A DNA stretch of 64,000 bases from Candidatus Bathyarchaeota archaeon (GTDB taxonomy: Archaea; Thermoproteota; Bathyarchaeia; Bathyarchaeales; Bathycorpusculaceae), in the NCBI GenBank assembly GCA_963815095.1, contig CAWFFH010000003.1, forward strand, positions 416,001-480,000, in the 5' to 3' direction. This document shows positions 9,524 to 52,258 of the stretch, piece after piece; the stretch's first letter is position 1; the number at the start of each line of letters is the position of its first letter. The position numbers and the translations under genes are program-made. Below the pieces are notes generated by a model that worked only from the letters and a program-made list of their open reading frames with translations, was not told the DNA's origin and searched no databases.

Positions 9524-10951
9524 ATGAGCATCCTTAGCCACGACACATTCTGGAATGCAGTCATCTCCCTGCCGATGACAAAAAAGATGCTTCGAATGTC
9601 GCTAAAAAAATGCAGTAAATGCGGCAGAACCGTATTGGAAGCCGCACTTGATGATTACGCAGGTAAAACCAACCTCAAATGCGACAAATGTAGCGGTTTG
9701 TACTCGCAAGTTATTGGTTTTTGGGTTGAATTTCTAAGAAGAACTCTTAACATTAAACGGGAAAAAGTTGAAAAACTCCTCGTCGACCCCTACGCGAGAA
9801 AAGCAGTCATAAACCTGACAAAATCATTCGCTTATATTGGCATAAAAAAACCCATCTCGATCTATGCACCTTTCCTTGTGGTTTGGGATTTCACTCACCA
9901 ATGCAATCTACAATGCAAACATTGCTACTCTAACAGCGGCAAAGCCCAAGAAGGAGAATTGACCACCGAACAAGCTTTGGAGGTTGTGGATCAGATTGCA
10001 GACGCCGGTGTTATAGCCTTAGCATTTTCAGGCGGAGAACCCTTAACCCGAAAAGACTTCTTTGAAGTAGCACGTCACGCCGCCGACCGTGGACTCTACG
10101 TGTCAGTCGCTTCAAATGGAACCTTACTTACGAAAGAAAACGTGCAAAAGCTAAAGCAAGCCAAAGTTAATTACCTCGACGTTAGCATCGATGGCGCTAC
10201 CGCCAAAACCCATGACGATTTCAGAGGTGTCCCCGGCACATTTGATAAAGCAGTTGCGGGCCTGAAAAACTGCGTAGAAGCAGACTTATGTGTCTGCATC
10301 GCAACGACAGTGGGCAAAAATAACATGACAGAATTACCTGCCATCATAGATTTAGCTGAAGAAATACACGCGGAAAGATTTACTTACTTCAACTTTATCC
10401 CAACAGGACGAGGCAAAGCTCATTTTGATCAAGACCTCTCACCTCAAGAACGAGAAAACGTCATGCACTACTTGCTAAATCGTATGTCATCAGGGTGCAA
10501 AACCACCATACTTACCACTGCACCCCAGCTAGCGCGAGTGGCATTGCAGTGTCAGGGTCCAGCTGGAACAGGCGACGTAACCATGTCCATGGCACACATG
10601 CAAACCGTCAGGATAACCAAAAAAGCCGTCCCTCTTGCCGATTTTATCGGGGGATGTGGTGCTGGAAGATTATATTGTTCACTCTCTCCGCAAGGCGACG
10701 TTCACCCATGCGTCTTCCTGCCTGTGAATGTTGGCAACTTGAAAACCGAAAAGTTCCAAGATATCTGGCTAAATGCCCCACTCTTCAAAGCTTTCCGCAA
10801 CAGAGCAAACCTCAAAGGCTCATGTGGAAAATGCGATTACAAATTCATTTGTGGCGGCTGCAGGGCACGCTCAGCAGCGTATCATAACGGTGACATGTTG
10901 AATGGTGACCCAGGCTGCCTTCAAGGAGTGAAAGGTGCAAAAAATGTCTAA
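9524..10951 (+). CDS. Radical SAM/SPASM protein (AhbD/NirJ/PqqE-like) with extra N-terminal Cys4 region
   Basis: CNLQCKHC, FSGGEP, SIDG; SPASM cysteines CGAG...PC...CGKCDYKFICGGCR...DPGC; N-terminal CSKC...CDKC. Confidence 0.9.
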   Translation: MSILSHDTFWNAVISLPMTKKMLRMSLKKCSKCGRTVLEAALDDYAGKTNLKCDKCSGLYSQVIGFWVEFLRRTLNIKREKVEKLLVDPYARKAVINLTKSFAYIGIKKPISIYAPFLVVWDFTHQCNLQCKHCYSNSGKAQEGELTTEQALEVVDQIADAGVIALAFSGGEPLTRKDFFEVARHAADRGLYVSVASNGTLLTKENVQKLKQAKVNYLDVSIDGATAKTHDDFRGVPGTFDKAVAGLKNCVEADLCVCIATTVGKNNMTELPAIIDLAEEIHAERFTYFNFIPTGRGKAHFDQDLSPQERENVMHYLLNRMSSGCKTTILTTAPQLARVALQCQGPAGTGDVTMSMAHMQTVRITKKAVPLADFIGGCGAGRLYCSLSPQGDVHPCVFLPVNVGNLKTEKFQDIWLNAPLFKAFRNRANLKGSCGKCDYKFICGGCRARSAAYHNGDMLNGDPGCLQGVKGAKNV

Positions 10952-11906
10952 CTCCGCAAAGAAAACGGTTAAAATTTTCCGTGCCAAAGACGACATAAGC
11001 GATATCGTTAAGGAAGCTGTGGCAAATTCTGGCTTACGTGGGAAACACTCGATTTTTATTAAACCAAACCTGAGCCACCCAGAGTACTTGCCCGGTGTTG
11101 TAACCTGTCCAGATTTAATGCGGCAGTTGGTTGGTTTGCTGCGGGATGGAAACAGTAAAGTCATCGTGGGTGAATCCAACGGGTTCAACTATCCCTGCTG
11201 GACGGCCTTTGATAAAACCGGCGCCCAAGCAGCCGTCAAAGCCGCAGGCGGCACGGTCATCAACCTCTCAGAAGACAAGCTAGTCGAAGTCAAATTCCAA
11301 AACAACACACCGCTGAAGCGGCTGTTTTTACCCAAAACCATCCTTGACGCCGACGCCGTTGTCGATTTGCCGTTAATGAAGACGCATGAATTCATGGCTT
11401 ACAGCGGCGCAATCAAAAACCTCTTCGGCTGCGTACCCAGCAACAAACGCATCTACCTGCATCCGTACCTGCCAGAAGTCATGTACCGGCTGTATAGCTT
11501 ATTCAAGCCTCAGTTAACGATTATGGATGCCAGAACAGGCATTGAAGGCAATGGCCCCACAAAAGGTAAACCCGTCAAAATGGGATTAATGTTAATAGGC
11601 AATGATGCGTTGGCTTTAGACATAACCGCTGCTAAAGTTATGATGCTAGATTGGAAGGAAACTTACCTCAACTTCATCGCCAAAAAAACAGGGTTGCTTG
11701 AAGAAGAAATCCAAGTCGAGGGGGTATCAGTATCTGAGGTAGAACACAGGTTTGAGCCGCCCAGAATCGATTTGCCCGTTAAAGCGCAAATGATAGTTTA
11801 CCAGCATGAGTATTTAACGAAGGTGCTTTTCTGCTCTTTGGACATTGTTAAGCTGTTCCAGAAGGTAACTATGGCATACAGGGGCAACCCCGTTGAAATA
11901 GGCTAA
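10944..11906 (+). CDS. DUF362-family protein
   Basis: IKPNL, VGES, LPLMKTH...GAIKNLFG and GIEGNGP motifs; ATG at 10944 overlaps the end of the upstream rSAM gene. Confidence 0.8.
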   Translation: MSNSAKKTVKIFRAKDDISDIVKEAVANSGLRGKHSIFIKPNLSHPEYLPGVVTCPDLMRQLVGLLRDGNSKVIVGESNGFNYPCWTAFDKTGAQAAVKAAGGTVINLSEDKLVEVKFQNNTPLKRLFLPKTILDADAVVDLPLMKTHEFMAYSGAIKNLFGCVPSNKRIYLHPYLPEVMYRLYSLFKPQLTIMDARTGIEGNGPTKGKPVKMGLMLIGNDALALDITAAKVMMLDWKETYLNFIAKKTGLLEEEIQVEGVSVSEVEHRFEPPRIDLPVKAQMIVYQHEYLTKVLFCSLDIVKLFQKVTMAYRGNPVEIG

Positions 11907-13099
11907 CTTAAAGCTTCGTCGTAAACTTTCAGTGTATCCTTAATTACGATGCGCCAATCATAGTTTTCCACAATTGTTTTCCGAGCCAGCGCACCCATTT
12001 CCTCTGCAAAAGCTGGATGCTCAAGCAAATAAAGTATTTTTTCGCTGAACTGCCGTGAATTGAAGGGTGCAACCAAAAACCCATTTTTACCACTGTCGAT
12101 GGTTTCGGGAATGCCACCAATGGTAGTTGTCACCACAGGCAAACCTGTTGAGAGTGCTTCCAAAACAGCGAAAGGATGATGTTCATAGAAGGTCGAGAAT
12201 GCAAAAACATCGGCGGCTTGATAGAGTTTAGGCAGCTTCTTGTCAGGATAGTAACCTGTAAAGATTATGTTGTCTTTTACTCCAAGTTTTTCTGCATGTG
12301 CGAGAAGTCTATTCATTTCGTCGCTTTGCCCCTTGCCCGAAATTATGAATTTGGCGTTTGGGAAACGTTTTACGACGGCAGGCATGCTTTCGACAAGTGT
12401 GAACAATCCTTTTCGAGCATAGAGGCGTCCGACTGAGACTATAGCTAAATCATCGGGGTTGAAGCCTAGCTCCTCTTTGACTTTGCGCTTATCGACGGAT
12501 GGCTTAAACTTGTTTACGTCAACACCGTTATGGATAACCCGTACCTTGCTTTCAGGAATCTTGTAATAATTCGTTAGCTCCCACTTCGTAAAATGACTAA
12601 CAGCGATAATCTTTCTCGCTCGCTTAAGCATACCTTCCTCAAAAAACCGTAAAAACCAGTTAAAACTCACCAAAAACTTTTCGTTCGCGTTTATCCGGCT
12701 ATAGGGTTCGCCGCGGATAGCTTCAGCCTCGCCCTTCCAAGTGGAGTGGACGGTGCAAACAAGCGTTTTGCCAAAGTTTGGCGGAACCGCAAAATTCGGC
12801 GTCAAGGGCAGTTGGGGGTGAGTAATGTCAACGTTGGCTGTGTTTCGAACGCTTTGGAGTTTGCGGTTACTGGCGGCTGCAAGCATAAACGATTTTACTA
12901 TGGGAATTTTTGGGATTTTTAGGAAAGAAACGTCAAGTTGTGGGTTGACTTGGATGTCTTGGGCTTGGTTTGACCCAGTAATCACGTAGATTTTGTAGCC
13001 GTTTTTGAGAAGTTCATTGGAAAGATAGTAGACGTAGGCGCCTGTTCCCCCTGATAGCGGCCAATATTCAGGCGAGATAAAGCAGACTTTATGCGCCAT
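11903..13099 (-). CDS. Glycosyltransferase family 4 (GT-B)
   Basis: EYWPLSGG, IHNGVD, GRLYARKG, E-x7-E motif (EHHPFAVLEA). Confidence 0.92.
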   Translation of the reverse strand: MAHKVCFISPEYWPLSGGTGAYVYYLSNELLKNGYKIYVITGSNQAQDIQVNPQLDVSFLKIPKIPIVKSFMLAAASNRKLQSVRNTANVDITHPQLPLTPNFAVPPNFGKTLVCTVHSTWKGEAEAIRGEPYSRINANEKFLVSFNWFLRFFEEGMLKRARKIIAVSHFTKWELTNYYKIPESKVRVIHNGVDVNKFKPSVDKRKVKEELGFNPDDLAIVSVGRLYARKGLFTLVESMPAVVKRFPNAKFIISGKGQSDEMNRLLAHAEKLGVKDNIIFTGYYPDKKLPKLYQAADVFAFSTFYEHHPFAVLEALSTGLPVVTTTIGGIPETIDSGKNGFLVAPFNSRQFSEKILYLLEHPAFAEEMGALARKTIVENYDWRIVIKDTLKVYDEALS

Positions 13100-14089
13100 T
13101 TACTTATCTCTCCCAATTAGGTATTTTGAGGTTGTTACTACTGCGCCGACAAACCAAGCTGTTGCCCTCACAAAGTAAAGCACCACCAACCGCAAAGCGA
13201 CCCAGTCTTGAAACTTGACTGAAAGCTTCACGGCAGAATAAACATAATAAACAAACATCCCCAATAATATTAACCCAGAAACAATCCACAACAACCTCAA
13301 CAGCGGCACAATACCTACAAGCAAAAACACAACTATACCCAAAAGCAACACAGGCTGAATATTCATGCCAACATCCGTAATCTCATCACCCCGAGCTAAG
13401 CTTCCATGTTTGAAGTAGAGTTTGAGGGTGTTTTTGCCATACTGCAGCTGTTGACGATAAAACGCTCGAAGCGTGGGACGGTTAAAATGATAACAAACCG
13501 CACTTGGCTCGTAAGCAATCTTGTAGCCTTTGTCGCTTAAGCGAAAGCCCAGGTCGGTGTCGTATTGGCTGGGCAGATTCTCGTCCCATCCACCCGCTTC
13601 CTCTATGACTGCTTTTTTGAGGAGCAGGTTCATGGTAGCTATGCGACCAGTAAATTTACCTATGCGGCGGTAGCGGTTTTTGAGTTCGTACCCGATGCTT
13701 CTTGCCCATGGGTTCTCGCGGTTCCACGTTTCGATACTCCCACTGACACCTGCCACCTTCGGCTCTGCAAGGTGTGGTGCAAGTTTGTTTAGCCAGTTGC
13801 CTTCAATTTTGGCATCGGCGTCTATGAAACCCAAAACAGGATGGGCGGCGATTTTCATGGCATAATTGTATGCCGCAGGAGCATTTAGGCGAATGGAAAC
13901 CACTTTAATTGGAAATTTCTCGGCAATTTTGACTGTGGCATCTTTGGAGCCGCCGTCCATAACTATGACTTCAAAAAAATCAGCAGGATAATTCAAAGCG
14001 AGAATGGATTTGAGACATTCTTCTATTGTGTCTTGGCTGTTATAGGCTGCCACAATAATCGAAACTTTGGGAAATGTGCCCTCAGCCAC
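13100..14089 (-). CDS. Glycosyltransferase family 2 with C-terminal TM helices
   Basis: VSIIVAAYN, DGGSKD, DAD, GGWDE. Likely start is GTG at 14089, since the longer ORF overlaps the upstream gene. Confidence 0.9.
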   Translation of the reverse strand: MAEGTFPKVSIIVAAYNSQDTIEECLKSILALNYPADFFEVIVMDGGSKDATVKIAEKFPIKVVSIRLNAPAAYNYAMKIAAHPVLGFIDADAKIEGNWLNKLAPHLAEPKVAGVSGSIETWNRENPWARSIGYELKNRYRRIGKFTGRIATMNLLLKKAVIEEAGGWDENLPSQYDTDLGFRLSDKGYKIAYEPSAVCYHFNRPTLRAFYRQQLQYGKNTLKLYFKHGSLARGDEITDVGMNIQPVLLLGIVVFLLVGIVPLLRLLWIVSGLILLGMFVYYVYSAVKLSVKFQDWVALRLVVLYFVRATAWFVGAVVTTSKYLIGRDK

Positions 14090-14093
14090 TTTG

Positions 14094-14792
14094 CTATCCC
14101 CTGAAACGAGCAAGCATAATCGAATAGAGGATTTTGGAGCCATCCCATGCTGGGTCAACGCCTGAGTGCCCATATGTTCGCTGCTCAAAACTAATCGGCA
14201 CCTCAGCTACTCGAAAGCCTGCCTTAACGGTCTTAACAAGCATTTCCGATTCTATTTCATATTCACGTGCGTATAACTTTTGTTTTTTTAGAACTTCACA
14301 CTTCATGGCGCGGTAACCTGATTGGGAATCGGTGACAGCGACTCCTGTGAAGACTTTGATTAAGTAATTGAAGACTCTAACGCCAAAAGCATTGAGTTTT
14401 CGCGCTGCAACCTGTTTTTGATTCAAATACCTTGAGCCGATAACAAGATCTGCCTTGTCTTCAAGAACAGGCTTCAAAACTTCTCGAAGTTCTTCAGGTC
14501 GATGTGAGCCGTCAGAGTCAATGGTTATTATTATGTCCCCTTTAGCTTTGGCAAAACCTGCGCGGAGCACGTATCCTTTGCCCAAGTGCTGTTTTAAACT
14601 GTAGAGTCTCACATCACGCTTTCCGGCAACATCAAAAGACCGATCATGAGAACAGTCATCAATGACTATTATCTCGTAGTTTAAGCCGATTTGCCGCATA
14701 GTTTTTTTTGTGCGGTCGATAATGTTGCCTATGGTTAATTCCTCGTTGTAGACGGGAATTATGACGGAAAGCAGCATTTCCCTTGGGCTCAT
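14094..14792 (-). CDS. Glycosyltransferase family 2, dolichol-phosphate-sugar synthase (DPM1-like)
   Basis: SVIIPVYNE, DDCSHD, GKG, DSDGSH, GSR, TDSQSGYR, EIESEM. Confidence 0.9.
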   Translation of the reverse strand: MSPREMLLSVIIPVYNEELTIGNIIDRTKKTMRQIGLNYEIIVIDDCSHDRSFDVAGKRDVRLYSLKQHLGKGYVLRAGFAKAKGDIIITIDSDGSHRPEELREVLKPVLEDKADLVIGSRYLNQKQVAARKLNAFGVRVFNYLIKVFTGVAVTDSQSGYRAMKCEVLKKQKLYAREYEIESEMLVKTVKAGFRVAEVPISFEQRTYGHSGVDPAWDGSKILYSIMLARFRG

Positions 14793-14826: not shown

Positions 14827-14875
14827 TTTGGCTACCCCAACCTTGTTAGCAATTGAAGGGCAGTTTGAACTTAAA

Positions 14876-15430
14876 ATGCAACCCACATTGAAAATTAAAG
14901 TTGAAGGTGACCGAAAGGTTTGGTTTTCCATGTGGTTTTTGGGAGCAATTGTCACTTTCGGCATCGCGTTTTTCCCTATGTTTTACCGTCTAGTTGAAGG
15001 CAGGAACAGGCATTCTCGCAACGAAGTAGAGTTTGAAGAGCAAATTGCAGCTTACTTACACAATCATGGGAAGGAACCGCCAACAAAAACTGAACAGTTC
15101 AAAATGATGAATTCGAAATTGTGGGCAGCCAGCATAATTCTAATTGTGCCAGTTTTCGTTATAGCGTATTTGTTGTCCAAAGATTTGGCGGTTCATGAAC
15201 GCAACCAAGATGCCTTCCTCGCCGCGGCTCTACCAGAACGAATTTTCATGCCCCAGACGATACCAATAAAAACTTATGCAATAATAACCATAGTGACATT
15301 GGGCGTTGGTGGAGTATACTGGCTCTATAAAGTCGTCAACCTGTATAACGCCCACTTTAAGGCACACTTACAAATACAAAAAGAAATGATTAGGCTGATG
15401 GAGGAAGAAACCGTTGTCAAGCAACTGTAA
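14876..15430 (+). CDS. Membrane protein with three short internal repeats (DUF4234-like)
   Basis: Three hydrophobic segments each ending in a His (..YRLVEGRNRH, ..YLLSKDLAVH, ..YKVVNLYNAH); ATG at 14876 preferred over TTG 14828; overlaps the next gene. Confidence 0.6.
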   Translation: MQPTLKIKVEGDRKVWFSMWFLGAIVTFGIAFFPMFYRLVEGRNRHSRNEVEFEEQIAAYLHNHGKEPPTKTEQFKMMNSKLWAASIILIVPVFVIAYLLSKDLAVHERNQDAFLAAALPERIFMPQTIPIKTYAIITIVTLGVGGVYWLYKVVNLYNAHFKAHLQIQKEMIRLMEEETVVKQL

Positions 15431-16532
15431 AAAACGCAGATTCGTAAGCCACGGTGGAGACATTTGGGGGTTTAGCAGAAAATACAACCTTCCCCTCGAA
15501 GATGTGCTTGAATTTAGCGGACCTATAAACTTCCTTGGTCCGTCGCCAAAAGCTGTGGAAGCAGTAAAGCAAAACGCAAAGCTCATTCGTTATTATCCTG
15601 ACCCCAACCCAGTCGAGTTCAAAGAGCAAATCGCCAAGTATGTGGGCAACGGGGTGGAAGAGGAAAACATCCTTTTAGGCAACGGCTCAATTGAACTCAT
15701 CTACATGATTACAGAGATTTTGCCCAAAGGCTTCAAAGCACTGATTCCCATACCCTCATTTTCAGAGTATGAAAAAGCAACTCTGCGTGTCGGTGGCGAG
15801 CCAATTTTTGTGCAGCAACCCGAAAACTTTGCATTAGAAACAGAAAAAATCAAAAAAGCTGTAACCGACGACACAAAAATCATATGCATCTGCAACCCGC
15901 ACAGTCCCTCAGGAACCCTCTACCACAAAGAAGAGCTCTTAGACCTCGTGGAGTTCTGTAACAAAAAAGACATCATCTTTAGCGTAGACGAGAACTACAT
16001 TGAGTTTGCCAATGAGAGCTTAAACAATACGTTGGCGGGGTTTGTGAAGGATTATGAGAACCTCTTTGTTATTCGCTCTGTCACAAAATTCTATGGCATG
16101 GCAGGCATACGCTTCGGCTACGCAATCGCAGCTGGAAACCTCATCGACAAGCTTGAAACAATGCGGCAACCATGGAGCATCAACGGTTTAGCAGATTCAG
16201 TTACGCTTGCAGCCTTCAACGACACCGAATTCATAGAGAATACCAAGCAAATCATCGCCAAAGAACGAACCGCTCTTGCCAAGAGCCTAAGCCAAATCGA
16301 AGGTTTGCATGTTTACCCATCCGTAACCAACTTTCTGCTCGTAAAAATCAACAACCCTAAACTTACTTCCACCATGCTAAAAGAACTATTAGCAAAAGAA
16401 CGCATACTAATCCGTGACTGCTGCACATTCATGGGCTTAGACGACCATTACTTCCGAGTCACCGTCCGCTCAGCCAAAGACAACCAGAAACTAACAGAAA
16501 CAATAAAGCAAATACTAAACAAAATTAACTAA
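15414..16532 (+). CDS. cobD: L-threonine-O-3-phosphate decarboxylase-like PLP enzyme (CobD/HisC family)
   Basis: N-terminal HGG, EFSGPINFLGP, YPDP, GNGSIE, CNPHSPSG, RSVTKFYGMAGIRFGY, LIRDC; HGG start and IRDC favour CobD over HisC. Confidence 0.78.
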   Translation: MSSNCKKRRFVSHGGDIWGFSRKYNLPLEDVLEFSGPINFLGPSPKAVEAVKQNAKLIRYYPDPNPVEFKEQIAKYVGNGVEEENILLGNGSIELIYMITEILPKGFKALIPIPSFSEYEKATLRVGGEPIFVQQPENFALETEKIKKAVTDDTKIICICNPHSPSGTLYHKEELLDLVEFCNKKDIIFSVDENYIEFANESLNNTLAGFVKDYENLFVIRSVTKFYGMAGIRFGYAIAAGNLIDKLETMRQPWSINGLADSVTLAAFNDTEFIENTKQIIAKERTALAKSLSQIEGLHVYPSVTNFLLVKINNPKLTSTMLKELLAKERILIRDCCTFMGLDDHYFRVTVRSAKDNQKLTETIKQILNKIN

Positions 16533-16777: not shown

Positions 16778-18205
16778 GTGCCCGCCAAACCCAAAAACAA
16801 GAATTCCAAACTCAAAACTGAAAACAACATCATCCTACTCATGACTACCGCTCCGCCCGAAAACGGCGCATGGTACTTGGGCAAACGGTTGCCACCCATT
16901 GGTTTGATGTATGTTGCATCGTCACTCGAAAAAGCAGGCTTCCAAGTTCAGATGCTCGACAACTACCTCATGAAAAAATCAACTGAAGAAGTTAAAGAGT
17001 TAATCACAAAAATCAACCCAGAAATTGTGGGGATAACTTGTGGCTCAGCAACTTACCCACGTTGCATAGAAACTGCGAAAGCCATCAAACAGGTAAAGCC
17101 CGACTGCAAGATTATAGTTGGCGGATGGCACGCATCTTACAAACCTGACAGTTTACTGGCTAACCCAGAAATTGACTATGTTGTTATGAGTGAAGGTGAA
17201 AAGGCAATCAGCGAGCTTGCAGCTGCCATCACAAGCGGCAACGAAAACCAAGCCCTAACTATACCCGGCGTCGCGTGCAAACGCAACAGCGAAAACATCA
17301 AAAACCCACCGAAATTGATCGATAACATGGACGAAATCCCTTATCCGGCAAGGCATCTTTTGCCACTTGAACTCTACGACCGAACAATAGAATATTTGGA
17401 TGCTAAACCAGCCGACGTTATGAGTATCTCACGGGGCTGTGTCTTTAACTGTGGCTTCTGCGAAACTCGCAAACTCTGGGGAAACGTCTGTCGAGGCTTT
17501 AGTCCGCAGAGGGTTATAGGCGAAATCCAAGACCTCCAGAAAAGATATGGCACCAAAGGCATCTACTTCATTAACGACAACTTTACGCTTAGAAAAAAAG
17601 AAACCATGGAACTCTGTAACTTAATGATTGAGAACAAGCTGGATTTAGAGTGGGTCTGCGACACACGGGTAGACCTTGTTAGTGATGAGCTATTGGCTTT
17701 GATGAGTAAAGCAGGATGCAAAACCATCTGGTTTGGCGTCGAATCAGCATCACCAAAAATCCTGCAGCATATTGGCAGAAATACAACTCCAGAACAGGTC
17801 GAAAAAGCTTTCAAACTATGCAAGAAATACGGAATAAAAACTGCCTGCTCATTCATGCTTGGCTTACCCGACGAAACATTGGCAGATATGGAAGCGTCCC
17901 TAAAATTCGCAAAGAAACTCAACCCCGACTGGTGCCAATTCAACACATTCATCGCATACCCCGACAGCAGACTCTACAATGAACTGCTAGAAAGTGGCAA
18001 ATACACTAAGTTGGACGAATTTTTGTTGAGCGTTAAAAGTGACCAATATAGTTACGAGGAATTGCAAGCGCTCCAGCGGCGCTTCTTTAAAGAATTCCAC
18101 ATGACGCCCAAACAGATCCTGAAGCGGATTAGACGCGAAGGTGCATTAAACTTCGCCAAACGCAGGCTCACTGGTGGCACAAGAAAGAGCACTGGAGTCG
18201 CCTAA
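16778..18205 (+). CDS. Cobalamin-binding radical SAM protein (paralog 1)
   Basis: PPIGLMYVAS, GGWH, SRGCVFNCGFC, DDNF-like NDNF, GVES. Confidence 0.92.
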   Translation: MPAKPKNKNSKLKTENNIILLMTTAPPENGAWYLGKRLPPIGLMYVASSLEKAGFQVQMLDNYLMKKSTEEVKELITKINPEIVGITCGSATYPRCIETAKAIKQVKPDCKIIVGGWHASYKPDSLLANPEIDYVVMSEGEKAISELAAAITSGNENQALTIPGVACKRNSENIKNPPKLIDNMDEIPYPARHLLPLELYDRTIEYLDAKPADVMSISRGCVFNCGFCETRKLWGNVCRGFSPQRVIGEIQDLQKRYGTKGIYFINDNFTLRKKETMELCNLMIENKLDLEWVCDTRVDLVSDELLALMSKAGCKTIWFGVESASPKILQHIGRNTTPEQVEKAFKLCKKYGIKTACSFMLGLPDETLADMEASLKFAKKLNPDWCQFNTFIAYPDSRLYNELLESGKYTKLDEFLLSVKSDQYSYEELQALQRRFFKEFHMTPKQILKRIRREGALNFAKRRLTGGTRKSTGVA

Positions 18206-19318: not shown

Positions 19319-20131
19319 TTATTTTTTGGCTATCCAATAGCTCATTTCTGGGCTGCAAAGAAGCCTGTAAATGGGAAACAACGGATTTGGGATCCAGGTG
19401 GCATGCTGATAGTAATCGGTTCGTTTTGAAAATTCATAGCCTTCTTCTTTGAAAACTTGAGCTATGGCTTGGTGATTTAGTGCGTGTTCTTTTTTGTGCC
19501 AGTAATCTGATAGGGTGTAGTCGATTGTGGGAACTTTTAGGCCTATAAGTTGGAAGTATAAGCTGTTGATAACGGGGTTAGAGTGAAAGTAAATGTCTTT
19601 TATTAGGCTGGCGAGGTTGCTGGGCTCGTTTTTCCAGTATGAAGGAGATGCTTCATGATCGATATACATTACGCCGCCTTTCTTTAGGAACCCAGAGACG
19701 TTGTGGAGGGCGTTGACGTAGTCAGGCAGGTGATGCAGAACAGAATAAAAGGTTATAAGGTCAAATTTGCCCTCGCCAAAATTTAGTTCTTCTATTGGCG
19801 AGTTAATAATAGTTAATTTGTCGGAAAAATAGGTAGAATATTTTTTTTTGAGAGTCTGGCACATGTCGGGCGAAATATCTGTTGCTGTCACTCTGTAACC
19901 CATCTGCAAGAGTTTACCCGTTAGGTTGCCTGTGCCTGCGCCCACATCAAGCGCGTTTCTTTGGTTGTTTGTGATTTGCTGGTCTGTGGTTTTTAGTTTG
20001 GTGGTTATTCTTTTTTGTTCTTGTTTGCTGTAGACTTCTGGGTGGAGTTGTTCGTAGTATTTTGCTTCGAAGCGGTGGACTGTGACGTTTGCTTGGTGGA
20101 TTTGTTCTTGGAGGGTTGGTTGTTTTGGCAT
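19319..20131 (-). CDS. Class I SAM-dependent methyltransferase
   Basis: LDVGAGTG, DIS, FDLI, SVLHH, LKKGG; ATG at 20131 is the likely start. Confidence 0.88.
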   Translation of the reverse strand: MPKQPTLQEQIHQANVTVHRFEAKYYEQLHPEVYSKQEQKRITTKLKTTDQQITNNQRNALDVGAGTGNLTGKLLQMGYRVTATDISPDMCQTLKKKYSTYFSDKLTIINSPIEELNFGEGKFDLITFYSVLHHLPDYVNALHNVSGFLKKGGVMYIDHEASPSYWKNEPSNLASLIKDIYFHSNPVINSLYFQLIGLKVPTIDYTLSDYWHKKEHALNHQAIAQVFKEEGYEFSKRTDYYQHATWIPNPLFPIYRLLCSPEMSYWIAKK

Positions 20132-20266
20132 TTGGTTTTTTGCGCCTCCGGAGCAAAGGCTGAATGGCAATAAGTTGCGTTTTCGAATTAATATAGTTTG
20201 AAAATTAAAGTTTTAAGATTTTAAAAAGAAAATAAAGGAGGGAAAATTGTTTTCCCGTTGTATGGT

Positions 20267-36418: not shown

Positions 36419-36421
36419 AGT

Positions 36422-40960: not shown

Positions 40961-40971
40961 TTTAAGGTATT

Positions 40972-45532: not shown

Positions 45533-46816
45533 ATGACAAAAACCTCTGAAGCTTACGGTACTCGAGAAAACTGGCCACCCTACACCTACAGGGATTACCC
45601 AGGCATACAACCTGAAGCATACGAATCTTTCATGAAATTCCTGGACACCGAAAACACTTCAGGCCGCTTAATGGAATTGCAACCGTGGGTTTCGGTTTGC
45701 GATAGCAGATGCGCATTTTGCTATTTCCCGACCACTGCATCGAGCAAAGTTCAGATTGGACCCTACCTTGATTTACTTAAAAAAGAACTCGGCATGTACG
45801 CTAAAACCAAGTACGTGAAGACAAGTGTGTTTGATGAGATAGTTCTGGGTGGTGGAACCCCTAGCGTTTTAAGTGCAGAGCAGATTATTGATTTAATCGA
45901 TTTCTGCAAAGCGAACTTTAACACTAGCAAAGAATACTTCATCAAAGTCACGGGTTCTTCAAAGACATTGGCGCTTCCAAAAATTGATAAACTGGCGGAA
46001 TATGGTGTTTACCAAATGGACATGGGTGCACAAACTTTTGATGATAAACTACGCAAAGCACTATGCCTGCCTGATAGCGCTGCCGATGTCGAGAGAGCTA
46101 TAAAGCATGCAAGAAAACTTGGGTTAGTAGTCTGCGTTGACCTCATGTACAACTTGCCAGGGCAAACCATGGAAAGTTGGGTAGACACACTTAAGAAAAC
46201 AATCGAGTTGGACGCAGAAGTTGACGCTTACTCTTTACATGTGGACCCTGGAACAATCCTTGAAAAAATGATTAAGAGCGATCAATCTCCACCGCAAGGC
46301 GACGCGGAATACGAGAAACAAATGTTCCTTACCGGCCACAAAATGCTCACAGAAGCAGGCTACAAAGCAGTTGGACACGACCGCTACAGTCGAGTTGAGT
46401 GGCACATGCGTGAAAACTGTCTCAACGGTTGGCCTTGGGGAGGCATACTTACCACAGGAGCAGGATGCTTTATGGGTTACCTCCAAAAGTTCTCCTACTC
46501 CAACATTGAAAACATCAACAATTACATGGAGACCGTAAAATCTGGAAAACTACCCATCAGTCGACTCTCAGAATCAACAAACGAAGACATGATGCGACGA
46601 ACAATGACACGACTATACTTGCGACTGCCTGTCAATAAAAAAGAGTTCATGGAAAAATTCTGCACTACCCCAGAAAAAGTGTTCCCAAATCAACTGCAAA
46701 AACTAAAAGAAAAAGGCTTAATTGAAATTGACGAAAAAGAAGTCCGCCTCACCAAGCTCGGCGAAGTGTGGAAAGGTAACATTGCGTGGGAATTTGCACC
46801 TAACCATGCAAAATAA
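45533..46816 (+). CDS. HemN-like radical SAM protein (HemN/HemW/class C methyltransferase clade)
   Basis: CDSRCAFC, LGGGTPS, GAQTF, DLMYNLPGQT, G.GA-like TGAG, C-terminal RLT..G (HemN_C). Confidence 0.85.
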   Translation: MTKTSEAYGTRENWPPYTYRDYPGIQPEAYESFMKFLDTENTSGRLMELQPWVSVCDSRCAFCYFPTTASSKVQIGPYLDLLKKELGMYAKTKYVKTSVFDEIVLGGGTPSVLSAEQIIDLIDFCKANFNTSKEYFIKVTGSSKTLALPKIDKLAEYGVYQMDMGAQTFDDKLRKALCLPDSAADVERAIKHARKLGLVVCVDLMYNLPGQTMESWVDTLKKTIELDAEVDAYSLHVDPGTILEKMIKSDQSPPQGDAEYEKQMFLTGHKMLTEAGYKAVGHDRYSRVEWHMRENCLNGWPWGGILTTGAGCFMGYLQKFSYSNIENINNYMETVKSGKLPISRLSESTNEDMMRRTMTRLYLRLPVNKKEFMEKFCTTPEKVFPNQLQKLKEKGLIEIDEKEVRLTKLGEVWKGNIAWEFAPNHAK

Positions 46817-46920: not shown

Positions 46921-47577
46921 TTAGTGCCTCTGTGGCTGAAGACCATACCAGGTCATTACTTTGGCCAATATAGGCACAATTACACCTAAGGCAATACCCG
47001 GCACGAACGCAATGATGAAGGCATTTACAGGGTCTGCTGCCCAGCTTCCTACCGCCATATCGCGTGATGGTTTTAGTGAGATGGTATAGTTCATGTATGC
47101 TTGGATGATTGCAACTATTATTGAAGCGGTTAAGCCTGCGCCTAGCATGCGTTTGAAGTTTGTTGAACCGTTGGTTAGTGATCCAGCGATGTAACCGATT
47201 ATGATAGCGTTGACCATAAAGAAGAGTATGCTTATGTCACCGTAAAAGTTGTATGCTGGAGATGAACCCGCGTAGTATCCAGTGTAGAGTCCTGCTGTAG
47301 CAACGTAGTACATGCCGCCCATAATGAAGCCTGCTGCGCCACCTGCCCATTTATTCCAAAGTAAGCCAAGCACTAATGGAATGCCGAGTACAATCATTTG
47401 AGCAAAGCCTTGTGTTAGAATGACACCGATAGTACCAGCTAAGCCAGACACGCCAAGTACGGCGTGAGATCCGCTTGGGTTTACATAGATTGCGAGAACG
47501 TAGATAAGGAGCACTAGAATCAGTGGTATGACTATGCCGAAGAGTATGTCTGCAAGTTTAAATTTTGGTGTTTCCAA
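46921..47577 (-). CDS. Integral membrane protein, possibly ECF S-component-like
   Basis: 218 aa, about 6 TM helices, Gly/Ala-rich LGLLWNKWAGGAAGFIMG segment resembling S-component helices. Confidence 0.45.
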   Translation of the reverse strand: METPKFKLADILFGIVIPLILVLLIYVLAIYVNPSGSHAVLGVSGLAGTIGVILTQGFAQMIVLGIPLVLGLLWNKWAGGAAGFIMGGMYYVATAGLYTGYYAGSSPAYNFYGDISILFFMVNAIIIGYIAGSLTNGSTNFKRMLGAGLTASIIVAIIQAYMNYTISLKPSRDMAVGSWAADPVNAFIIAFVPGIALGVIVPILAKVMTWYGLQPQRH

Positions 47578-47866: not shown

Positions 47867-49156
47867 TTAATGGCGTGATGCACATATGATGCCTGATAGT
47901 GGCAGTCTTGAGGGACAGACATAGGAGCATGTTCCACATGCTATGCAGTCTTTAACCCATAGTTTCTCAGCTTTCTCAAAGTCGCCTTTCATTATTGCGT
48001 TGTATAGCATTACGGGGTGCAGTCGTACTGGACATGATGCAATGCAGTTTGAACAGTGGATGCATGCAGTTTGCTTTGGTTCTTTCTTGTGCTTGCTTTT
48101 TGCGAATACGATGATGCTTGAAGTGCGTTTAGTTATTGGAGCATCGGTTGTTGGGATAGAGTTACCCATCATTACTCCGCCGACTACTACTTGTTTGAGG
48201 TCGTTTTTGTCCACATTGTTTGCGCCGATGATATCGCTTATTGGAGTGCCTATTTTGACAAGCAAGTTTTTGGGTTCTTTGACATCGCCATTAATAGTTG
48301 TGACTCTGGAGATTAATGGTTCACCTTCGAAAACTGCATTAGCGATTGCGTTTAAGGTTGCAACGTTTTGCACTATAGTTCCCATTTCGTATGAGCGTTT
48401 GCCTGGAGGTGTTTCATAACCTAAAATTGCTTTTTGAAGAACGCTCGCGTCTCCTTGCTGGTAAGTTAAGTGTTTCGCGACAACTTCTGTGTCTGGTTCT
48501 TTGCTGAAAGCTTCTTGGAGTTTAGGAATGGCTTCTACTTTGCTAACTTTGGTGGCAACGATGACTTTTGGGTTTCCCAAGAGTTTACGTACAACACGGA
48601 CACCTCGTACAAGGTTCGCAGTTTTCTCAATCATCAGTCTTTCGTCTGCGGTATCGTATGGTTCACCTTCGGCAGCGTTTACAATGAGGGTTTTAATGGG
48701 TTTGTCCTGGGGCACAGCAAGCTTTACGCTTGTTGGGAAGCCTGCACCGCCTAAGCCGATAATGCCTGCTTCACGGATGCGTTTAAGCAGCACGTCGTTG
48801 GGTGTTTTTGCGAGGTCAGCTTCTGCAATGGGTGTTAGGGTTTTGTCTTTGGTTTTTTTGTTGTCGTTTTCAATCCAGATGGCTTCAGAGCATTCTGAGT
48901 AGCAACTGTTGTATACGTCGGCGATTTTTGTGACTTTCCCAGAGATTGGGCTGTGGACAGGTGCGCTGATGCGTTCTTTTGAGTCTGCAATTTTCTGACC
49001 CATTGCTACGACGTCACCAACAGCAACAATGGGTTTGTTGTTTGCCCCGGGTTGCTGGTTGGTTAAGACTATGGCGATTTTTGGGTCAGGAAAGACTTCG
49101 ATGGGTGTTATTCTTGCTTTCTCTTTGTGTTCTTTTATATTTACAAGGTTTGCCAT
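47867..49156 (-). CDS. rnfC: RnfC/PduS-family flavo-iron-sulfur protein
   Basis: GD.V..GQKIA, PVHSPISG, AGIIGLGGAGFPT, NAAEGEPY, NVAT, SLBB region, CIHCSNCIASCP and CIACGTCSYVCP. Confidence 0.88.
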   Translation of the reverse strand: MANLVNIKEHKEKARITPIEVFPDPKIAIVLTNQQPGANNKPIVAVGDVVAMGQKIADSKERISAPVHSPISGKVTKIADVYNSCYSECSEAIWIENDNKKTKDKTLTPIAEADLAKTPNDVLLKRIREAGIIGLGGAGFPTSVKLAVPQDKPIKTLIVNAAEGEPYDTADERLMIEKTANLVRGVRVVRKLLGNPKVIVATKVSKVEAIPKLQEAFSKEPDTEVVAKHLTYQQGDASVLQKAILGYETPPGKRSYEMGTIVQNVATLNAIANAVFEGEPLISRVTTINGDVKEPKNLLVKIGTPISDIIGANNVDKNDLKQVVVGGVMMGNSIPTTDAPITKRTSSIIVFAKSKHKKEPKQTACIHCSNCIASCPVRLHPVMLYNAIMKGDFEKAEKLWVKDCIACGTCSYVCPSRLPLSGIICASRH

Positions 49157-49161
49157 TTTGT

Positions 49162-50328
49162 TCATCTCCCAAAGGATTTGTGAATTCCCACACGGTCAAG
49201 AAGCGGTACCGTCAAGTTCATAATAAGCAATGCTAGCAGGGCGCCTCCGAAGAAGTTCATGTATGTCTGTATCAAGATTGTTAGTAAAGCTAAGCCGACG
49301 CCAAAGATGATTTGTCCCATGCCTGTGAATGGAGTTGTTGCAGGGTCGGTTGCCATGAAGAAGCCCAAAAAGATTGAGCTACCGATGAAAAGTTCAAAGA
49401 GCAACCTGACTGTTAGGTCTGTGTCTCCGAAAGCGGTGGCAAATATTAGAGACATGATAGCAATGGATACGAAGTAAGATAGAGTGATTCTCCATTTGAC
49501 GTATTTGCGAGCAACGACAAAGAATGCGATACCAACGATGATTACTGCTAAGGCTGAAGCGCCACCTGTCCAACCGTGGAACTTGTCAAGGATCATAAGC
49601 GAGTTTACGTCACCAAGACTAGCTCCTGGGTTAGAATAGCATCCTTGCAGGTAGGTTGTGAAAGAAGCTAAGCCATTAGTGCCTAAAGGTGTGGCTCCCC
49701 CACCAATTGGACCTGAAAGTAAAGGCACTCCTAAACCTCCCTCAGTGAATGCTGCAAAGTGATCTTTTGCCAAAAAGACGCTGCCTATGAAGGGTAGCAG
49801 AACTATGAATTTAGCGGCTGCTGCTGGATTGACGAGTTTTCTGCCTGCTAATCCTTGGAGTTTTTTGAAGACTACAAGACCAAGCAATGAGATAATTGCG
49901 ACGTACAAGAATGCGTTGGGAGCAGTTAATGTGTCGATTGGCATTACATCGGTTGCTTGAGCCATTGATGGAACACCAAGCGAGTATGAAAGTGTAACAA
50001 TTAAGCCAAAGACTGCTGCGGACCATGTGTTCATTTGTGAGTCAGAAGCTACTTTACTGATTAACGCATCTGCACCAACGGCTACACCGATAGCGATAAG
50101 CGCATTGATGATCACTATCATGCCCAACGGCATTTGCCAAACATTTGTCAGACCCATTGTAGATATCTGTGAGTCTGTTGGTGCACTGACTGACCACCAG
50201 AGGGCTGCTGAGATAACAGTGATTATCAAGAGAGAAATGAATGTGTATTGCATGAGGCGATTCTTTGACATTGTACCGGTTATGTGAGGTGCTGGTTTTA
50301 CAACTAGGTCTTTTGATGATTCACTCAT
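49162..50328 (-). CDS. rnfD: RnfD/NqrB-family membrane subunit
   Basis: N-terminal PAPH, K...G......NPA, GATPL (FMN-Thr site), FFMATDPATTP, LIMNL.VPLLD...FG. Confidence 0.88.
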   Translation of the reverse strand: MSESSKDLVVKPAPHITGTMSKNRLMQYTFISLLIITVISAALWWSVSAPTDSQISTMGLTNVWQMPLGMIVIINALIAIGVAVGADALISKVASDSQMNTWSAAVFGLIVTLSYSLGVPSMAQATDVMPIDTLTAPNAFLYVAIISLLGLVVFKKLQGLAGRKLVNPAAAAKFIVLLPFIGSVFLAKDHFAAFTEGGLGVPLLSGPIGGGATPLGTNGLASFTTYLQGCYSNPGASLGDVNSLMILDKFHGWTGGASALAVIIVGIAFFVVARKYVKWRITLSYFVSIAIMSLIFATAFGDTDLTVRLLFELFIGSSIFLGFFMATDPATTPFTGMGQIIFGVGLALLTILIQTYMNFFGGALLALLIMNLTVPLLDRVGIHKSFGR

Positions 50329-50541: not shown

Positions 50542-51027
50542 ATGCAACCTATCTTTGCTGAGGACTCAACTGTGCCTAAAGAAAGCCACGAAGAACTTGA
50601 AGGATTAACCTTGGAGGTGTACTTGCATGCAGTAAAAAAGGGCAAACCAGTCGGTCCCCGAGACGTCATGAAAGGCGCCAACCTTAGCAGCCCGAGCGTG
50701 GCGTATAGGCACCTGCAGAAACTTGAAGACGAAGGATACCTGGTGAAAAACGAGTATGGAGAATACACAGTTAAGCGCAAAGCACACCTCAAAGGCTACG
50801 TTTGGCTTGGACGTCACTTAATACCGAAAATGTGGCTCTATGCTCTGATTTTTCTCTCTATTTTTGTTGTTGAACTCTTTATTTTAGTAATTCATTTTCC
50901 TGTGGAAACTGAGGAATTCAAAGTTTTCTTCTTGCTATTAATGGGAATTACTGCTTTAGCAATGGCAGTTTTCGCCATCGAAGGGTTCCAACAGAATAAA
51001 CAAAAAAACAAAACAGCAACTGAATAA
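50542..51027 (+). CDS. Membrane-anchored winged-helix DNA-binding protein
   Basis: GPRDVMKGANLSSPSVAYRHLQKL plus two TM helices; paralog of 28766..29212. Confidence 0.75.
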   Translation: MQPIFAEDSTVPKESHEELEGLTLEVYLHAVKKGKPVGPRDVMKGANLSSPSVAYRHLQKLEDEGYLVKNEYGEYTVKRKAHLKGYVWLGRHLIPKMWLYALIFLSIFVVELFILVIHFPVETEEFKVFFLLLMGITALAMAVFAIEGFQQNKQKNKTATE

Positions 51028-51151
51028 ACATCTAAAGTTCAAAAACCGCTGCAAAAAGGTTGCTTACTGCGTTTTAGAGCAAAAAATGAAAAATCAATTT
51101 TTTAGAGGAAGTTTTATATCGCTTCACCGATTTTATCTTGACTTGATTTAA

Positions 51152-52258
51152 ATGAATCCAATCACAGCCCCATTGTTTATGGTTGTTTGGCGGTGTACCC
51201 GCAATTGTGTGGGCAGTTGCACCTATTGCAGTTTCATTAAAGAATACGCTAAAGACCAAGAGTTGAGCACTGAACAAGCCAAGCATATGGTTGATGAAAT
51301 GGCAGAGTTCGGTTCACAATGGTTAGGCATCAGCGGCGGCGAACCCCTGATTCGACCTGACATTTGGGAAGTTATCGAATACGCAGAGAAAAAGCACAAC
51401 ATGCAAGTCAGTTTGATTACAAGCGGTTATGCATGGGACGAAAAACGCTTTGATCTGCTCCGAAAATATAATGTACATACCGCAATCAGCATTGACGGTG
51501 ACAAAGAATCAAACGACAAAATCAGACGCAAAGGCGGCTATGATCAAGCAATAAACGCCATGGAAAAACTCAGCAGCGTTGGCCTACTCGACTGCTTAGT
51601 CACAACCATGACCAAATTTAACATTGACAAGATGGCACACCCCGCAATGCTCGCAGAGAAATACAAAGCCCGCATGCTAGTTTACCACAACCTCGTCCCC
51701 GTTGGCAGAGCCGGAGAACACATGGAAGACATCGCCCCAACCGCCGACCAATACGAAACAGCATTCAACGAAATCTACGACATCCAAAGAAGACTCTACG
51801 GCAAAGTCAAAGTCAACGTCTACGCACCATTCTACGCACGCATCGTACGCCAAAAAAACCCAGCAGACTTCTGGCAATGGTACAACGAAGGCTACCTGGG
51901 TAAATGCACCATCGGCGGCAACTATATCGGCATAACAGAAAACGGCGACTATCGAAGCTGCGGCTTCCACGAAGGCTACCGCATCGGCAACGTCAAAGAA
52001 ACAAAACTACGCACCGCATGGGAACAACTCCAAAAAAGCGAACTACACCTAAAACTACGCGACAAAAACAACCTCAAAGGCAGATGCGGCGTATGCGAAT
52101 ACCGAGAAATCTGCGGCGGATGCAGAACACGCGCAGAATTCTACACTGGAGATCTCTTTGAATCAGACCCAGCATGCAACTACATACCCAAAATCCTGCG
52201 GGAAGACCCCAAAGCACTCGAAGCACTACGCAAAAACCCAATGGGAAAAGTGCAATAA
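51152..52258 (+). CDS. Radical SAM/SPASM protein (paralog of 39881..40960)
   Basis: CTRNCVGSCTYC, SGGEP, SIDG, PVGRA, CGVCEYREICGGCR...DPAC. Confidence 0.9.
   Translation: MNPITAPLFMVVWRCTRNCVGSCTYCSFIKEYAKDQELSTEQAKHMVDEMAEFGSQWLGISGGEPLIRPDIWEVIEYAEKKHNMQVSLITSGYAWDEKRFDLLRKYNVHTAISIDGDKESNDKIRRKGGYDQAINAMEKLSSVGLLDCLVTTMTKFNIDKMAHPAMLAEKYKARMLVYHNLVPVGRAGEHMEDIAPTADQYETAFNEIYDIQRRLYGKVKVNVYAPFYARIVRQKNPADFWQWYNEGYLGKCTIGGNYIGITENGDYRSCGFHEGYRIGNVKETKLRTAWEQLQKSELHLKLRDKNNLKGRCGVCEYREICGGCRTRAEFYTGDLFESDPACNYIPKILREDPKALEALRKNPMGKVQ

Follow-up and report, generated by a model that had tools for sequence, protein, structure and literature searches.

Why do nine radical S-adenosylmethionine (SAM) genes lie within 43 kb of a single archaeal genome, and what do they make? 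The DNA in question is a stretch of 64,000 nucleotides from a Candidatus Bathyarchaeota archaeon (GenBank assembly GCA_963815095.1, contig CAWFFH010000003.1, positions 416,001 to 480,000; hereafter, the window), in which the cluster occupies positions 9524 to 52258. A sequence-only reading had taken the cluster for one system, bounded by housekeeping genes and making one product: a modified lipid, a glycan on surface proteins, or a new cofactor. We find that the window holds most of a lineage-specific island of Bathy-6, and we put at about one in two the probability that this island makes or tailors tetraether lipids, with late cobamide genes alongside. Its gene families, its conservation as a unit, its paralogy and its phyletic pattern are observed; its working is read from families and neighborhood. 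Among the three products proposed, a modified tetraether lipid is the best supported, since a paralog of the tetraether synthase Tes and a second UbiA prenyltransferase adjoin the cluster in relatives and one SPASM enzyme appears to have the architecture of Gms; a glycan or a new cofactor is less so, and the idea of one product for the whole block is unsupported. The earlier interpretation is thus partly supported.

A conserved cluster of radical SAM genes

Gene families were called with Pfam and NCBIfam profiles on the open reading frame (ORF) listing of the window. Both profile sets recover nine radical SAM genes between 9524 and 52258: three of the SPASM type, five with a B12-binding domain, and one HemN-like. 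Each of the nine proteins has exactly one CxxxCxxC motif, intact as the sequence-only reading had described, and none of them reaches the curated cut-off of any NCBIfam model. The partners listed by that reading (methyltransferases, an Fe-S aldo/keto reductase, a DUF362 protein, three glycosyltransferases, CobD-like and CbiB genes, and an RnfC/RnfD-like pair) are likewise all present. The source genome (G000; 2.69 Mb, 98% complete) has 50 matches to Radical_SAM (PF04055), which gives an expectation of 0.8 in 43 kb against the nine observed. The next densest 43-kb stretch holds four, and in 20,000 uniform placements of 50 points a maximum of nine was never reached, and a maximum of eight 11 times. 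Similar densities throughout the genome, which would have made the cluster unremarkable, are not seen: the clustering is far beyond chance, and the original observation is confirmed.

The same genes are kept together in relatives. Two genomes of the same genus (G013 and G011) have orthologs of all nine radical SAM genes and most of their partners, in order, and large parts of the cluster are kept in three others (G009, G022, and G021). In G040, from another family, the same genes lie together but reshuffled, with seven B12 enzymes. G041, a third Bathy-6 lineage (it holds locus L082), has a compact 21-kb core, which runs from CbiB2 (the cluster copy of CbiB) through a B12 enzyme, a membrane protein, an amidohydrolase, SPASM_B, a propeller protein, an unassigned gene of 384 aa, and the HemN-like gene to CobD2 (the cluster copy of CobD), and then through a membrane protein, three glycosyltransferases, and DUF362 to SPASM_A; the run from SPASM_B to the HemN-like gene is on one strand. 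A second module of G041, 33 kb from the core, comprises B12 orthogroup 1, the Fe-S reductase, the methyltransferase MT2, and three B12 enzymes. Neither the RnfC/D pair nor SPASM_C lies within 100 kb in G041; these genes and metK are linked to the cluster at genus level only, or not at all elsewhere.

The anchor of the conserved core, assigned by Pfam and synteny, is a single-copy metal hydrolase of the Amidohydro_3 family (33247-34797, minus strand). A scan of species genomes for this gene gave 64 loci, 57 of which have an ortholog of at least 44% identity, and 42 of those span 18 kb or more. All 42 loci have a B12 radical SAM gene within 10 kb of the amidohydrolase; over the same distance, 39 have SPASM_B, 38 have CbiB2, 37 have a match to the PQQ-repeat propeller, and 22 have the HemN-like gene. 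Six amidohydrolase homologs of no more than 38% identity (L096-L101) have no cluster genes nearby. A scatter of orthologs in relatives had been named in advance as the outcome that would tell against a unit; the synteny comparison shows instead a unit kept across lineages. Chance accumulation does not account for such a block, which is conserved as a unit.

It might still be a mosaic without a common product, in which paralog-rich families and cobamide genes have gathered in a plastic region and each operon has substrates of its own. The genome has the material for this: about 15 paralogs of the B12 radical SAM family, 19 copies of a 900-aa surface protein (discussed below), and many GT4 and GT2 glycosyltransferase paralogs. 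The separation of the two modules of G041, with RnfC/D and SPASM_C not near the core, would fit as well, as would the run of about 30 kb of mostly housekeeping genes that splits the island in G000. Gene-family expansion and gene transfer are stressed for Bathy-6 in a genome paper on this group (PMC11697101; of this and the other papers cited we use the portions available to us). Against a mosaic speak the cohesion of this gene set, which survives rearrangement across two families and one further lineage, the single phyletic pattern common to the second copies of Tes, CobS, and CbiB (see below), and a density far above chance. We regard a mosaic as quite unlikely. The same genome paper notes that genes for B12 radical SAM and PQQ-domain proteins are numerous and that B12 genes occur at three loci; the passages used here do not describe the island, and the supplementary figures may bear on the point (PMC11697101).

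Enzymes that point to a possible tetraether-lipid product

The preference for a tetraether lipid starts from SPASM_A (9524-10951, plus strand), a radical SAM/SPASM protein of 475 aa with its CxxxCxxC motif at residue 127. Its best NCBIfam model is AhbD (TIGR04545), with 308 bits over residues 118-466 and a cut-off of 500. This AhbD-like core follows a Cys-rich N-terminal extension of 117 aa, and Pfam gives no match in residues 1-117. In alignments with homologs from other families, the match to SPASM_A begins at about residue 11 to 20. Our phyletic sample consists of 151 Bathyarchaeia genomes with a completeness of at least 85%, and full-length homologs are found in 91 of these. In eight island-free genomes the homolog stands without other island genes beside it, the exception being an adjacent B12 radical SAM gene in G061. 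The published glycerol monoalkyl glycerol tetraether (GMGT) synthase, Gms, was recognized as an AhbD homolog with a 100-aa N-terminal extension, annotated COG4001; gms often clusters with the B12 radical SAM genes gmm, for a GMGT methylase, and grs, for a glycerol dialkyl glycerol tetraether (GDGT) ring synthase, and Bathyarchaeota hold many Gms homologs and several Gmm2 copies (PMC11214058). As judged from its profile matches, and with a length above the 400 aa that a Gms should have at least, SPASM_A appears to have this Gms architecture. Six public accessions, orthologs of SPASM_A and of two B12 orthogroups, are not found in the examined supplements of that paper, which contain no archaeal accession list and so speak neither for nor against membership.

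The DUF362 protein (10935-11906, plus strand; PF04015, 5.4e-49) overlaps SPASM_A by 17 bases and is kept beside it in relatives; it has a weak match to LarA, which is in the same Pfam clan. In an island-free genus of the same family, a Gms-like gene lies between MoCF and AspRS homologs (L119, G106:C1:106001-126000). These neighbors match the right flank of the window, so that the island may have grown around that locus. Elsewhere in G000, a 689-aa protein (G000:C3:651757-653826) has the best AhbD-like core of the genome (355.7 bits), preceded by about 340 N-terminal residues, and may be considered a second candidate for a lipid-acting SPASM enzyme.

The five B12 enzymes all carry PF02310 and PF04055 and are all encoded on the plus strand. 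Orthogroup 1 (16778-18205) is followed by the aldo/keto reductase (18220-19305, plus strand), which has a C-terminal 4Fe-4S dicluster domain and is single-copy in the genome. The two are paired in G013, G011, G007, and G041, and homologs of the reductase in the more distant genomes G030, G034, G038, and G035 (35-47% identity) lie outside such clusters. Orthogroup 2 (27318-28727) is the one beside CbiB2 in the compact core; orthogroup 3 (30490-31944) begins 41 bases 3′ of CbiB2. Orthogroup 4 (34958-36418) precedes by 3 bases a class I SAM methyltransferase, MT2 (36422-37123, plus strand), the other such enzyme, MT1, being at 19319-20170 on the minus strand. Orthogroup 5 (40972-42366) lies 11 bases 3′ of SPASM_B (39881-40960, plus strand), an AhbD/NirJ-like protein without the N-terminal extension. 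In the tree the five copies fall into four starred orthogroup clades; orthogroups 4 and 5 are sisters, and a starred inner branch separates them. These clades are common to G013, G011, G040, and G041, and orthogroup 1 forms a 100/100 clade with G013, G011, and G041. The tree indicates that the five copies are old and distinct, not recent tandem duplicates. Their nearest solved structures are AprD4, QCMT (9ccb), OxsB, and TokK, at 7e-28 or weaker, and their scores on BchE (TIGR02026) range from 161 to 251.5 bits, the cut-off of 481.35 not being reached. They share the cluster with the Gms-like gene, and Tes2 adjoins in relatives. A B12 radical SAM enzyme of Bathyarchaeota, Ted, desaturates GDGTs, and relatives methylate them (bioRxiv 10.1101/2025.10.20.683597). 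We also considered synthesis of the lower ligand (Bza) and rejected it: BzaD scores of 103-146 bits fall short of the cut-off (450), and the cluster lacks a ThiC-like gene.

Several of these family labels have a tetrapyrrole flavor, and a new tetrapyrrole-derived cofactor would be made if AhbD/NirJ-, HemN/ChuW-, and BchE-like enzymes tailored a corrinoid or siroheme-type ring and CbiB2, CobD2, CobY, and CobS2 then modified its side loop. The best models of the nine radical SAM proteins are indeed AhbD, BchE, and ChuW, with P-methyltransferase for one of them, and four late cobamide enzymes have second copies. Every such score is, however, far below its cut-off. The HemN-like enzyme (45533-46816, plus strand; HemN_C domain) scores 181.4 bits on ChuW/HutW (cut-off 400), 128.4 on HemN (324.95), and 154.5 on HemW (205.4), reaching none of them, and the label BchE-like is applied to B12 radical SAM enzymes generically. 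The island has no ring-forming tetrapyrrole gene, and no AhbA/B-type decarboxylase is present. Nothing in the genome reaches the cut-off for AhbD (best 355.7 against 500) or for AhbA (best 29.3 against 140), so the AhbD-like genes need another job, and a heme role for them appears unlikely. Extended AhbD-like enzymes, moreover, have been demonstrated to act on lipids (PMC11214058). We consider a tetrapyrrole product very improbable.

The third SPASM protein, SPASM_C (51152-52258, plus strand), is a paralog of SPASM_B with 46% identity. A further paralog of the two (44% identity; G000:C3:775378-776451) is split by one in-frame TAG and is either a pseudogene or a gene with a read-through codon.

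The second indication for a lipid comes from outside the window. The cluster in G000 is flanked on the left by PolB, an AglH-like gene, AglB, and a topoisomerase, and on the right by a GPN-loop ATPase, RidA, and a bacterial-type MetK. The sequence-only reading had placed the borders of the system at these housekeeping genes, wrongly, as the island continues upstream of a housekeeping insert. In G041, cobamide loop genes lie on both sides of the core (flank annotation). Their counterpart in G000 is a block at G000:C3:383304-395713, 20-33 kb upstream of the window, with the order CarS, CobY-like, CobS2, GalE-like epimerase, UbiA2, Tes2, GT2 and GT4 paralogs, CobZ, CobT, CobS1, and a second CobY-like gene. 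This block touches the cluster in G011, G013, G040, and G041. The insert that separates the two in G000 includes an energy-coupling factor (ECF)-type module (CbiQ/EcfT and two ABC ATPases; G000:C3:397605-400058). CarS adjoins the block in G000 and lies within 40 kb in G013; it is absent from the stretches of G011, G040, and G041 that we examined. Tes2 (G000:C3:387759-389234) scores 462.1 bits on the Tes model NF045702, reaching the equivalog cut-off of 450, and matches the structure of the tetraether synthase GDGT-MAS (PDB 7tol) at 3.6e-113; the housekeeping Tes1 scores 661.6 bits. Tes2 differs from known Tes in being a divergent second copy, in two families, that always lies beside CobS2. For UbiA2, models of digeranylgeranylglyceryl phosphate (DGGGP) synthase are the closest, below their cut-offs.

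Taken together, these families suggest how the island could work. UbiA2 and Tes2, outside the window in G000 and adjoining the cluster in relatives, would provide or handle the tetraether core, and the Gms-like SPASM_A would cross-link its chains. The five B12 enzymes may methylate, cyclize, or desaturate unactivated carbons of the tails or backbone, in the manner of Gmm, Grs, the GDGT methylases, and Ted. Further steps could be added by SPASM_B, SPASM_C, the HemN-like enzyme, the Fe-S aldo/keto reductase, and the two methyltransferases, while the glycosyltransferases would build sugar head groups. CbiB2 and CobD2, with the nearby CobT, CobS, CobY-like, and CobZ genes, would finish or salvage cobamide, and these late steps would feed the B12-dependent enzymes; electrons for the Fe-S clusters may come through the RnfC/RnfD-like pair. 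The best-supported placement of the island is as a probable extension of a known kind of cluster. Like the gms-gmm-grs clusters and the Ted and GDGT methylase systems, it encodes an extended AhbD-like SPASM enzyme together with B12 radical SAM enzymes (PMC11214058). Its scale is far larger than that of a gms-gmm-grs cluster: the B12 enzymes number five to seven, and they are joined by a HemN-like enzyme and two more of the SPASM type. It also adds second copies of Tes, UbiA, CobS, CobY, CbiB, and CobD, as well as three to five glycosyltransferases, an amidohydrolase, DUF362, and surface propellers.

Second copies of cobamide genes beside a second Tes

The sequence-only reading held that the B12-dependent enzymes are co-located with their cofactor supply. 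This is borne out even more fully than was claimed, with CobT, CobS, CobY-like, and CobZ genes in the same island of relatives. The CbiB and CobD-like genes of the cluster itself are present as described, but they turn out to be second paralogs, with housekeeping copies elsewhere in the genome. CbiB2 (29444-30448, plus strand), of the adenosylcobinamide-phosphate synthase family, scores 232.5 bits on TIGR00380, and the housekeeping CbiB1 306.2; both reach the cut-off of 165.9. CobD2 (15414-16532, plus strand), a pyridoxal phosphate (PLP) enzyme of the threonine-phosphate decarboxylase family, scores 289.8 bits on TIGR01140, with a cut-off of 290.55, and matches PDB 1lc5 at 3.3e-45. CbiB1 lies beside a CobD-like gene (G000:C3:13891-14856) and a tetrapyrrole methylase at G000:C3:12909-16199; CobD2 and CbiB2, in contrast to this housekeeping pair, lie apart. 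The end of contig C9 (G000:C9:37700-54727) repeats the start of C3 (11100-30000) gene for gene, including CbiB1 and CobD, and represents either an assembly overlap or a real duplication.

In the upstream block, CobT (403.6 bits, cut-off 240) and both CobS proteins (CobS1, 163.5 bits, and CobS2, 110.9 bits; cut-off 110) reach their cut-offs, CobS2 barely, whereas CobZ (126.4 bits, cut-off 152.5) and both CobY-like genes stay below theirs. All six families of cobamide nucleotide-loop assembly (CobD, CbiB, CobY, CobS, CobT, and CobZ) are thus in the island; it differs from the known pathway in that four of the six are duplicated and that its CbiB and CobS are divergent copies. The island copies score lower than the housekeeping ones (Tes, 462 against 662 bits; CbiB, 232 against 306; CobS, 111 against 164), and on these scores and their paralogy Tes2, CobS2, and the cluster CbiB are divergent second copies.

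The three have closely similar distributions. Across the 151 genomes, CbiB2 types are found in 21, 18 of which also have CbiB1; CobS2 types in 20, plus one fragment, with a second CobS in all 20; and Tes2 types in 21, with the common Tes type in 19 of these. All three are confined to family f1 (g1, g18, g21, g22, and g23) and f7 (g16), and Bathyarchaeia of this sample outside f1 and f7 have housekeeping types only. A wide search for CbiB2 homologs adds nothing on the origin of the paralog among the matches listed (at least 120), which are all close relatives with 78-93% identity, annotated as CbiB. In the portions available to us of the literature on Bathy-6 and related topics, matched second copies of Tes, UbiA, CobS, CobY, CbiB, and CobD did not turn up. 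The second copies represent either an unusually complete cofactor supply beside its users or B12-loop chemistry re-used for lipids.

The neighborhood of CobS2 bears on this choice. Tes2 lies no more than 5.4 kb from CobS2 in all 20 genomes with CobS2, in two different gene orders, and CobS2 and a CobY-like gene stand between the Tes2-UbiA2-epimerase operon and the Gms-like operon. The SPASM_A ortholog is within 7 kb of CobS2 in 15 of the 20, on other contigs in four, and at 39.6 kb in G000. CobD2, for its part, is invariably accompanied, across the lineages seen, by a membrane protein and three glycosyltransferases. In the window these are a 200-aa protein with three hydrophobic stretches (14828-15430, plus strand), which overlaps CobD2 by 17 bases and is kept in front of it in relatives, and a block of GT4 (11903-13099), GT2a (13100-14188), and GT2b (14094-14792), all on the minus strand, which is kept in all lineages looked at. 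GT2a has MftF as its best model but, at 130 bits against a cut-off of 280, is not a member. GT2b resembles polyprenyl-phosphate hexose synthases such as AglJ (TIGR04182, 149 bits, cut-off 325).

These arrangements raise the possibility that the Cob paralogs do not finish B12 but make the product: an amino-alcohol phosphate bridge on a tetraether lipid or glycolipid, or a membrane-tethered corrinoid. CobD2 would make the amino-alcohol phosphate; the CobY-like enzyme would activate it, or an N-acyl form made by CbiB2, with guanosine monophosphate (GMP); and CobS2 would transfer it onto a hydroxyl of a lipid or glycolipid supplied by UbiA2, Tes2, and the glycosyltransferases. This would yield either a phospho-aminopropanol head group, by a Kennedy-like route from B12-loop enzymes, or a lipid-tethered corrinoid. 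The divergence and single phyletic pattern of CobS2, Tes2, and CbiB2, the housekeeping copies retained beside them, the place of CobS2 and the CobY-like gene between the Tes2 and Gms-like operons, and the tie of CobD2 to glycosyltransferases all speak for such a route. A partial precedent exists in the HS:2 capsule of Campylobacter jejuni, whose protein Cj1436 we take to be a CobD homolog. In that system (Cj1436, Cj1438, and Cj1435), as in the island, an amino-acid-phosphate decarboxylase gene lies among glycosyltransferase genes; the serine-phosphate decarboxylase feeds the amidation of a sugar acid, glucuronate, the amino-alcohol phosphate becoming amide-linked to the carboxylate (PMC12409886). 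There the ligase is an ATP-dependent domain of Cj1438 and not a CbiB homolog (PMC12409886). CbiB2, moreover, passes the CbiB equivalog cut-off and CobS2 just reaches that of CobS, and a lipid offers CbiB2 no evident carboxylate partner. In four genomes (G143, G016, G005, and G114), CobS1, which is of the housekeeping type, lies within 1 kb of CbiB2, which fits ordinary cobamide work. We are aware of no CobS or CbiB homolog that acts on a substrate other than a corrinoid, and this counts against the route as well. We think it unlikely that the Cob paralogs make the product, if not so unlikely that the idea should be set aside; were it true, the head-group or anchoring chemistry would be undescribed in any organism.

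Tailoring of tetraether lipids with cofactor supply alongside remains our preferred account, and several points weigh against it. The proposed link to Gms, Gmm, Grs, and Ted rests on architecture, family labels, and neighborhood, and the best models AhbD/NirJ, BchE, and ChuW/HemN, all below cut-off, would also fit tetrapyrrole chemistry. The account leaves unexplained the PQQ propeller beside SPASM_B (37 of 42 loci), the link between the amidohydrolase and CbiB2, and the retention of divergent second CobD, CbiB, CobY, and CobS copies beside housekeeping ones in most genomes; the position of CobS2, with the Tes2 operon on one side and the Gms-like operon on the other, suits an enzyme that forms product better than one that supplies cofactor. 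Finally, the split of the modules in G041, where RnfC/D and SPASM_C are not within 100 kb, means that the parts need not all act together.

In soils, peat, and sediments, few archaea are more abundant than Bathyarchaeia. Tetraether lipids serve widely as environmental proxies, and few of their modifying enzymes are known. The candidates that the island offers form a defined and conserved set: a Gms-like enzyme, four or more old B12 orthogroups, two more SPASM enzymes, a HemN-like enzyme, and a second Tes. These suit the heterologous systems in use for Gms, Gmm, and Ted, and bear on the question of what enzyme methylates the glycerol backbone in butanetriol tetraethers. Public sequencing runs that match 27300-37200 comprise seven soil DNA data sets and no RNA data set.

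Surface proteins and other genes of the cluster

Interleaved with the enzymes are five secreted, C-terminally anchored proteins. Three of them, of 938 aa (20267-23083), 917 aa (23230-25983), and 897 aa (42580-45273), all on the minus strand, belong by Pfam and paralogy to a family of 19 copies scattered over the genome, with a signal peptide, a C-terminal membrane anchor, and weak PQQ_2 matches; none of the three matches an NCBIfam model at E ≤ 1e-5. The fourth is an 840-aa double propeller of PQQ (pyrroloquinoline quinone) repeats, BamB-like and C-terminally anchored (37120-39642, minus strand). The sequence-only reading had counted four large beta-propellers, of which this one alone has a strong PQQ_2 match (2e-70), the other three being the members of the scattered family. 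The 840-aa protein is not a member of the quinoprotein dehydrogenases (TIGR03075, 116.6 bits, cut-off 480.05). The fifth protein, of 286 aa (32265-33125, minus strand), has a signal peptide, an HYR/Ig-like part, and a C-terminal anchor.

A surface glycan or glycoprotein system could be built from these parts, with a lipid-linked glycan destined for the anchored propeller and Ig-like proteins, radical SAM enzymes that modify its sugars, and CobD2 and CbiB2 that amidate a sugar acid with an amino-alcohol phosphate. Besides the interleaving itself, the single-strand run of SPASM_B, propeller, 384-aa gene, and HemN-like gene in G041, the likeness of GT2b to AglJ, and the presence of AglB and an AglH-like gene at 3624-6816 of the window (Pfam) fit this idea, for which amidation of glucuronate in Campylobacter is again a precedent (PMC12409886). 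But the island has no UDP-sugar dehydrogenase or other sugar-acid enzyme, and AglB adjoins the cluster in G000 only, other genes intervening in G013 and G021. The 900-aa proteins in the clusters of relatives are only 27-48% identical to the window copies and so are not stable partners, contrary to the sequence-only reading, which had made the surface proteins part of the system. Tes2 and UbiA2, furthermore, point to a lipid. We judge a surface glycan to be improbable as the product, and keep tetraether lipids as the preferred one.

The earlier reading also listed three regulators. One of them, a tandem double Lrp/AsnC protein (26162-27196, plus strand; AsnC, 2.5e-30), holds up. We considered it as a siroheme decarboxylase and rejected this (AhbA, 36 bits, cut-off 140). 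The other two are small proteins of 148 aa (28766-29212, minus strand) and 161 aa (50542-51027, plus strand), each with a weak winged-helix match and two C-terminal membrane helices; they are paralogs of each other within a six-member family of the genome. At G000:C3:198405-203507, another member of the 19-copy surface family has as neighbors two tandem double-Lrp genes that are paralogous to 26162-27196, a hint that regulators of this kind accompany the surface proteins.

RnfC-like (47867-49165; an NADH/FMN/Fe-S protein) and RnfD-like (49162-50328; a membrane protein) genes, both on the minus strand, are present as had been described, but they do not belong to an Rnf complex. As in the Rnf complex (RnfABCDGE), the RnfC-like protein passes its subfamily cut-off (TIGR01945, 396.8 bits, cut-off 245.95) and the RnfD-like protein carries an NQR2_RnfD_RnfE domain. 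In contrast to it, RnfD is below cut-off (TIGR01946, 92.7 bits, cut-off 207), and the RnfA/E family PF02508 has no match in G000, 98% complete as it is, while a control search found it in four reference genomes. By gene content, the pair is a stand-alone two-gene module. An RnfD-like protein fused to a 4Fe-4S dicluster domain (G000:C3:612578-613882) is 47% identical to the RnfD of the window, and G040 has a similar RnfD-dicluster form inside its cluster.

Beside this pair is a polytopic membrane protein of 218 aa (46921-47577, minus strand), specific to Bathyarchaeia, which follows the amidohydrolase in the compact core. Its reported likeness to an S-component comes down to a language-model score of 0.86 (Thia_YuaJ), the best Pfam match having E = 0.016, and is a lead only. 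Past the right end of the cluster, metK (54943-56121, plus strand) lies 2.7 kb downstream, exactly where it had been placed, and encodes a bacterial three-domain enzyme in an archaeon; it adjoins the right end of the cluster in G011, G013, and G022 and is not seen in the stretches of G040 and G041.

We also screened 53 mostly intergenic small ORFs of 18-110 aa for precursors of ribosomally synthesized and post-translationally modified peptides (RiPPs). No precursor-like peptide was found among them, and a RiPP reading was rejected. The one clear conserved gene, absent from the inventory of the sequence-only reading, is an 88-aa membrane ORF with two hydrophobic stretches (32002-32268, plus strand), directly 3′ of the B12 enzyme of orthogroup 3; 12 related loci have matches that extend over 70% or more of its length. 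The filter was also passed by two opposite-strand ORFs that overlap it (seven and 12 loci) and by a 27-aa ORF at 29370-29453 (three loci).

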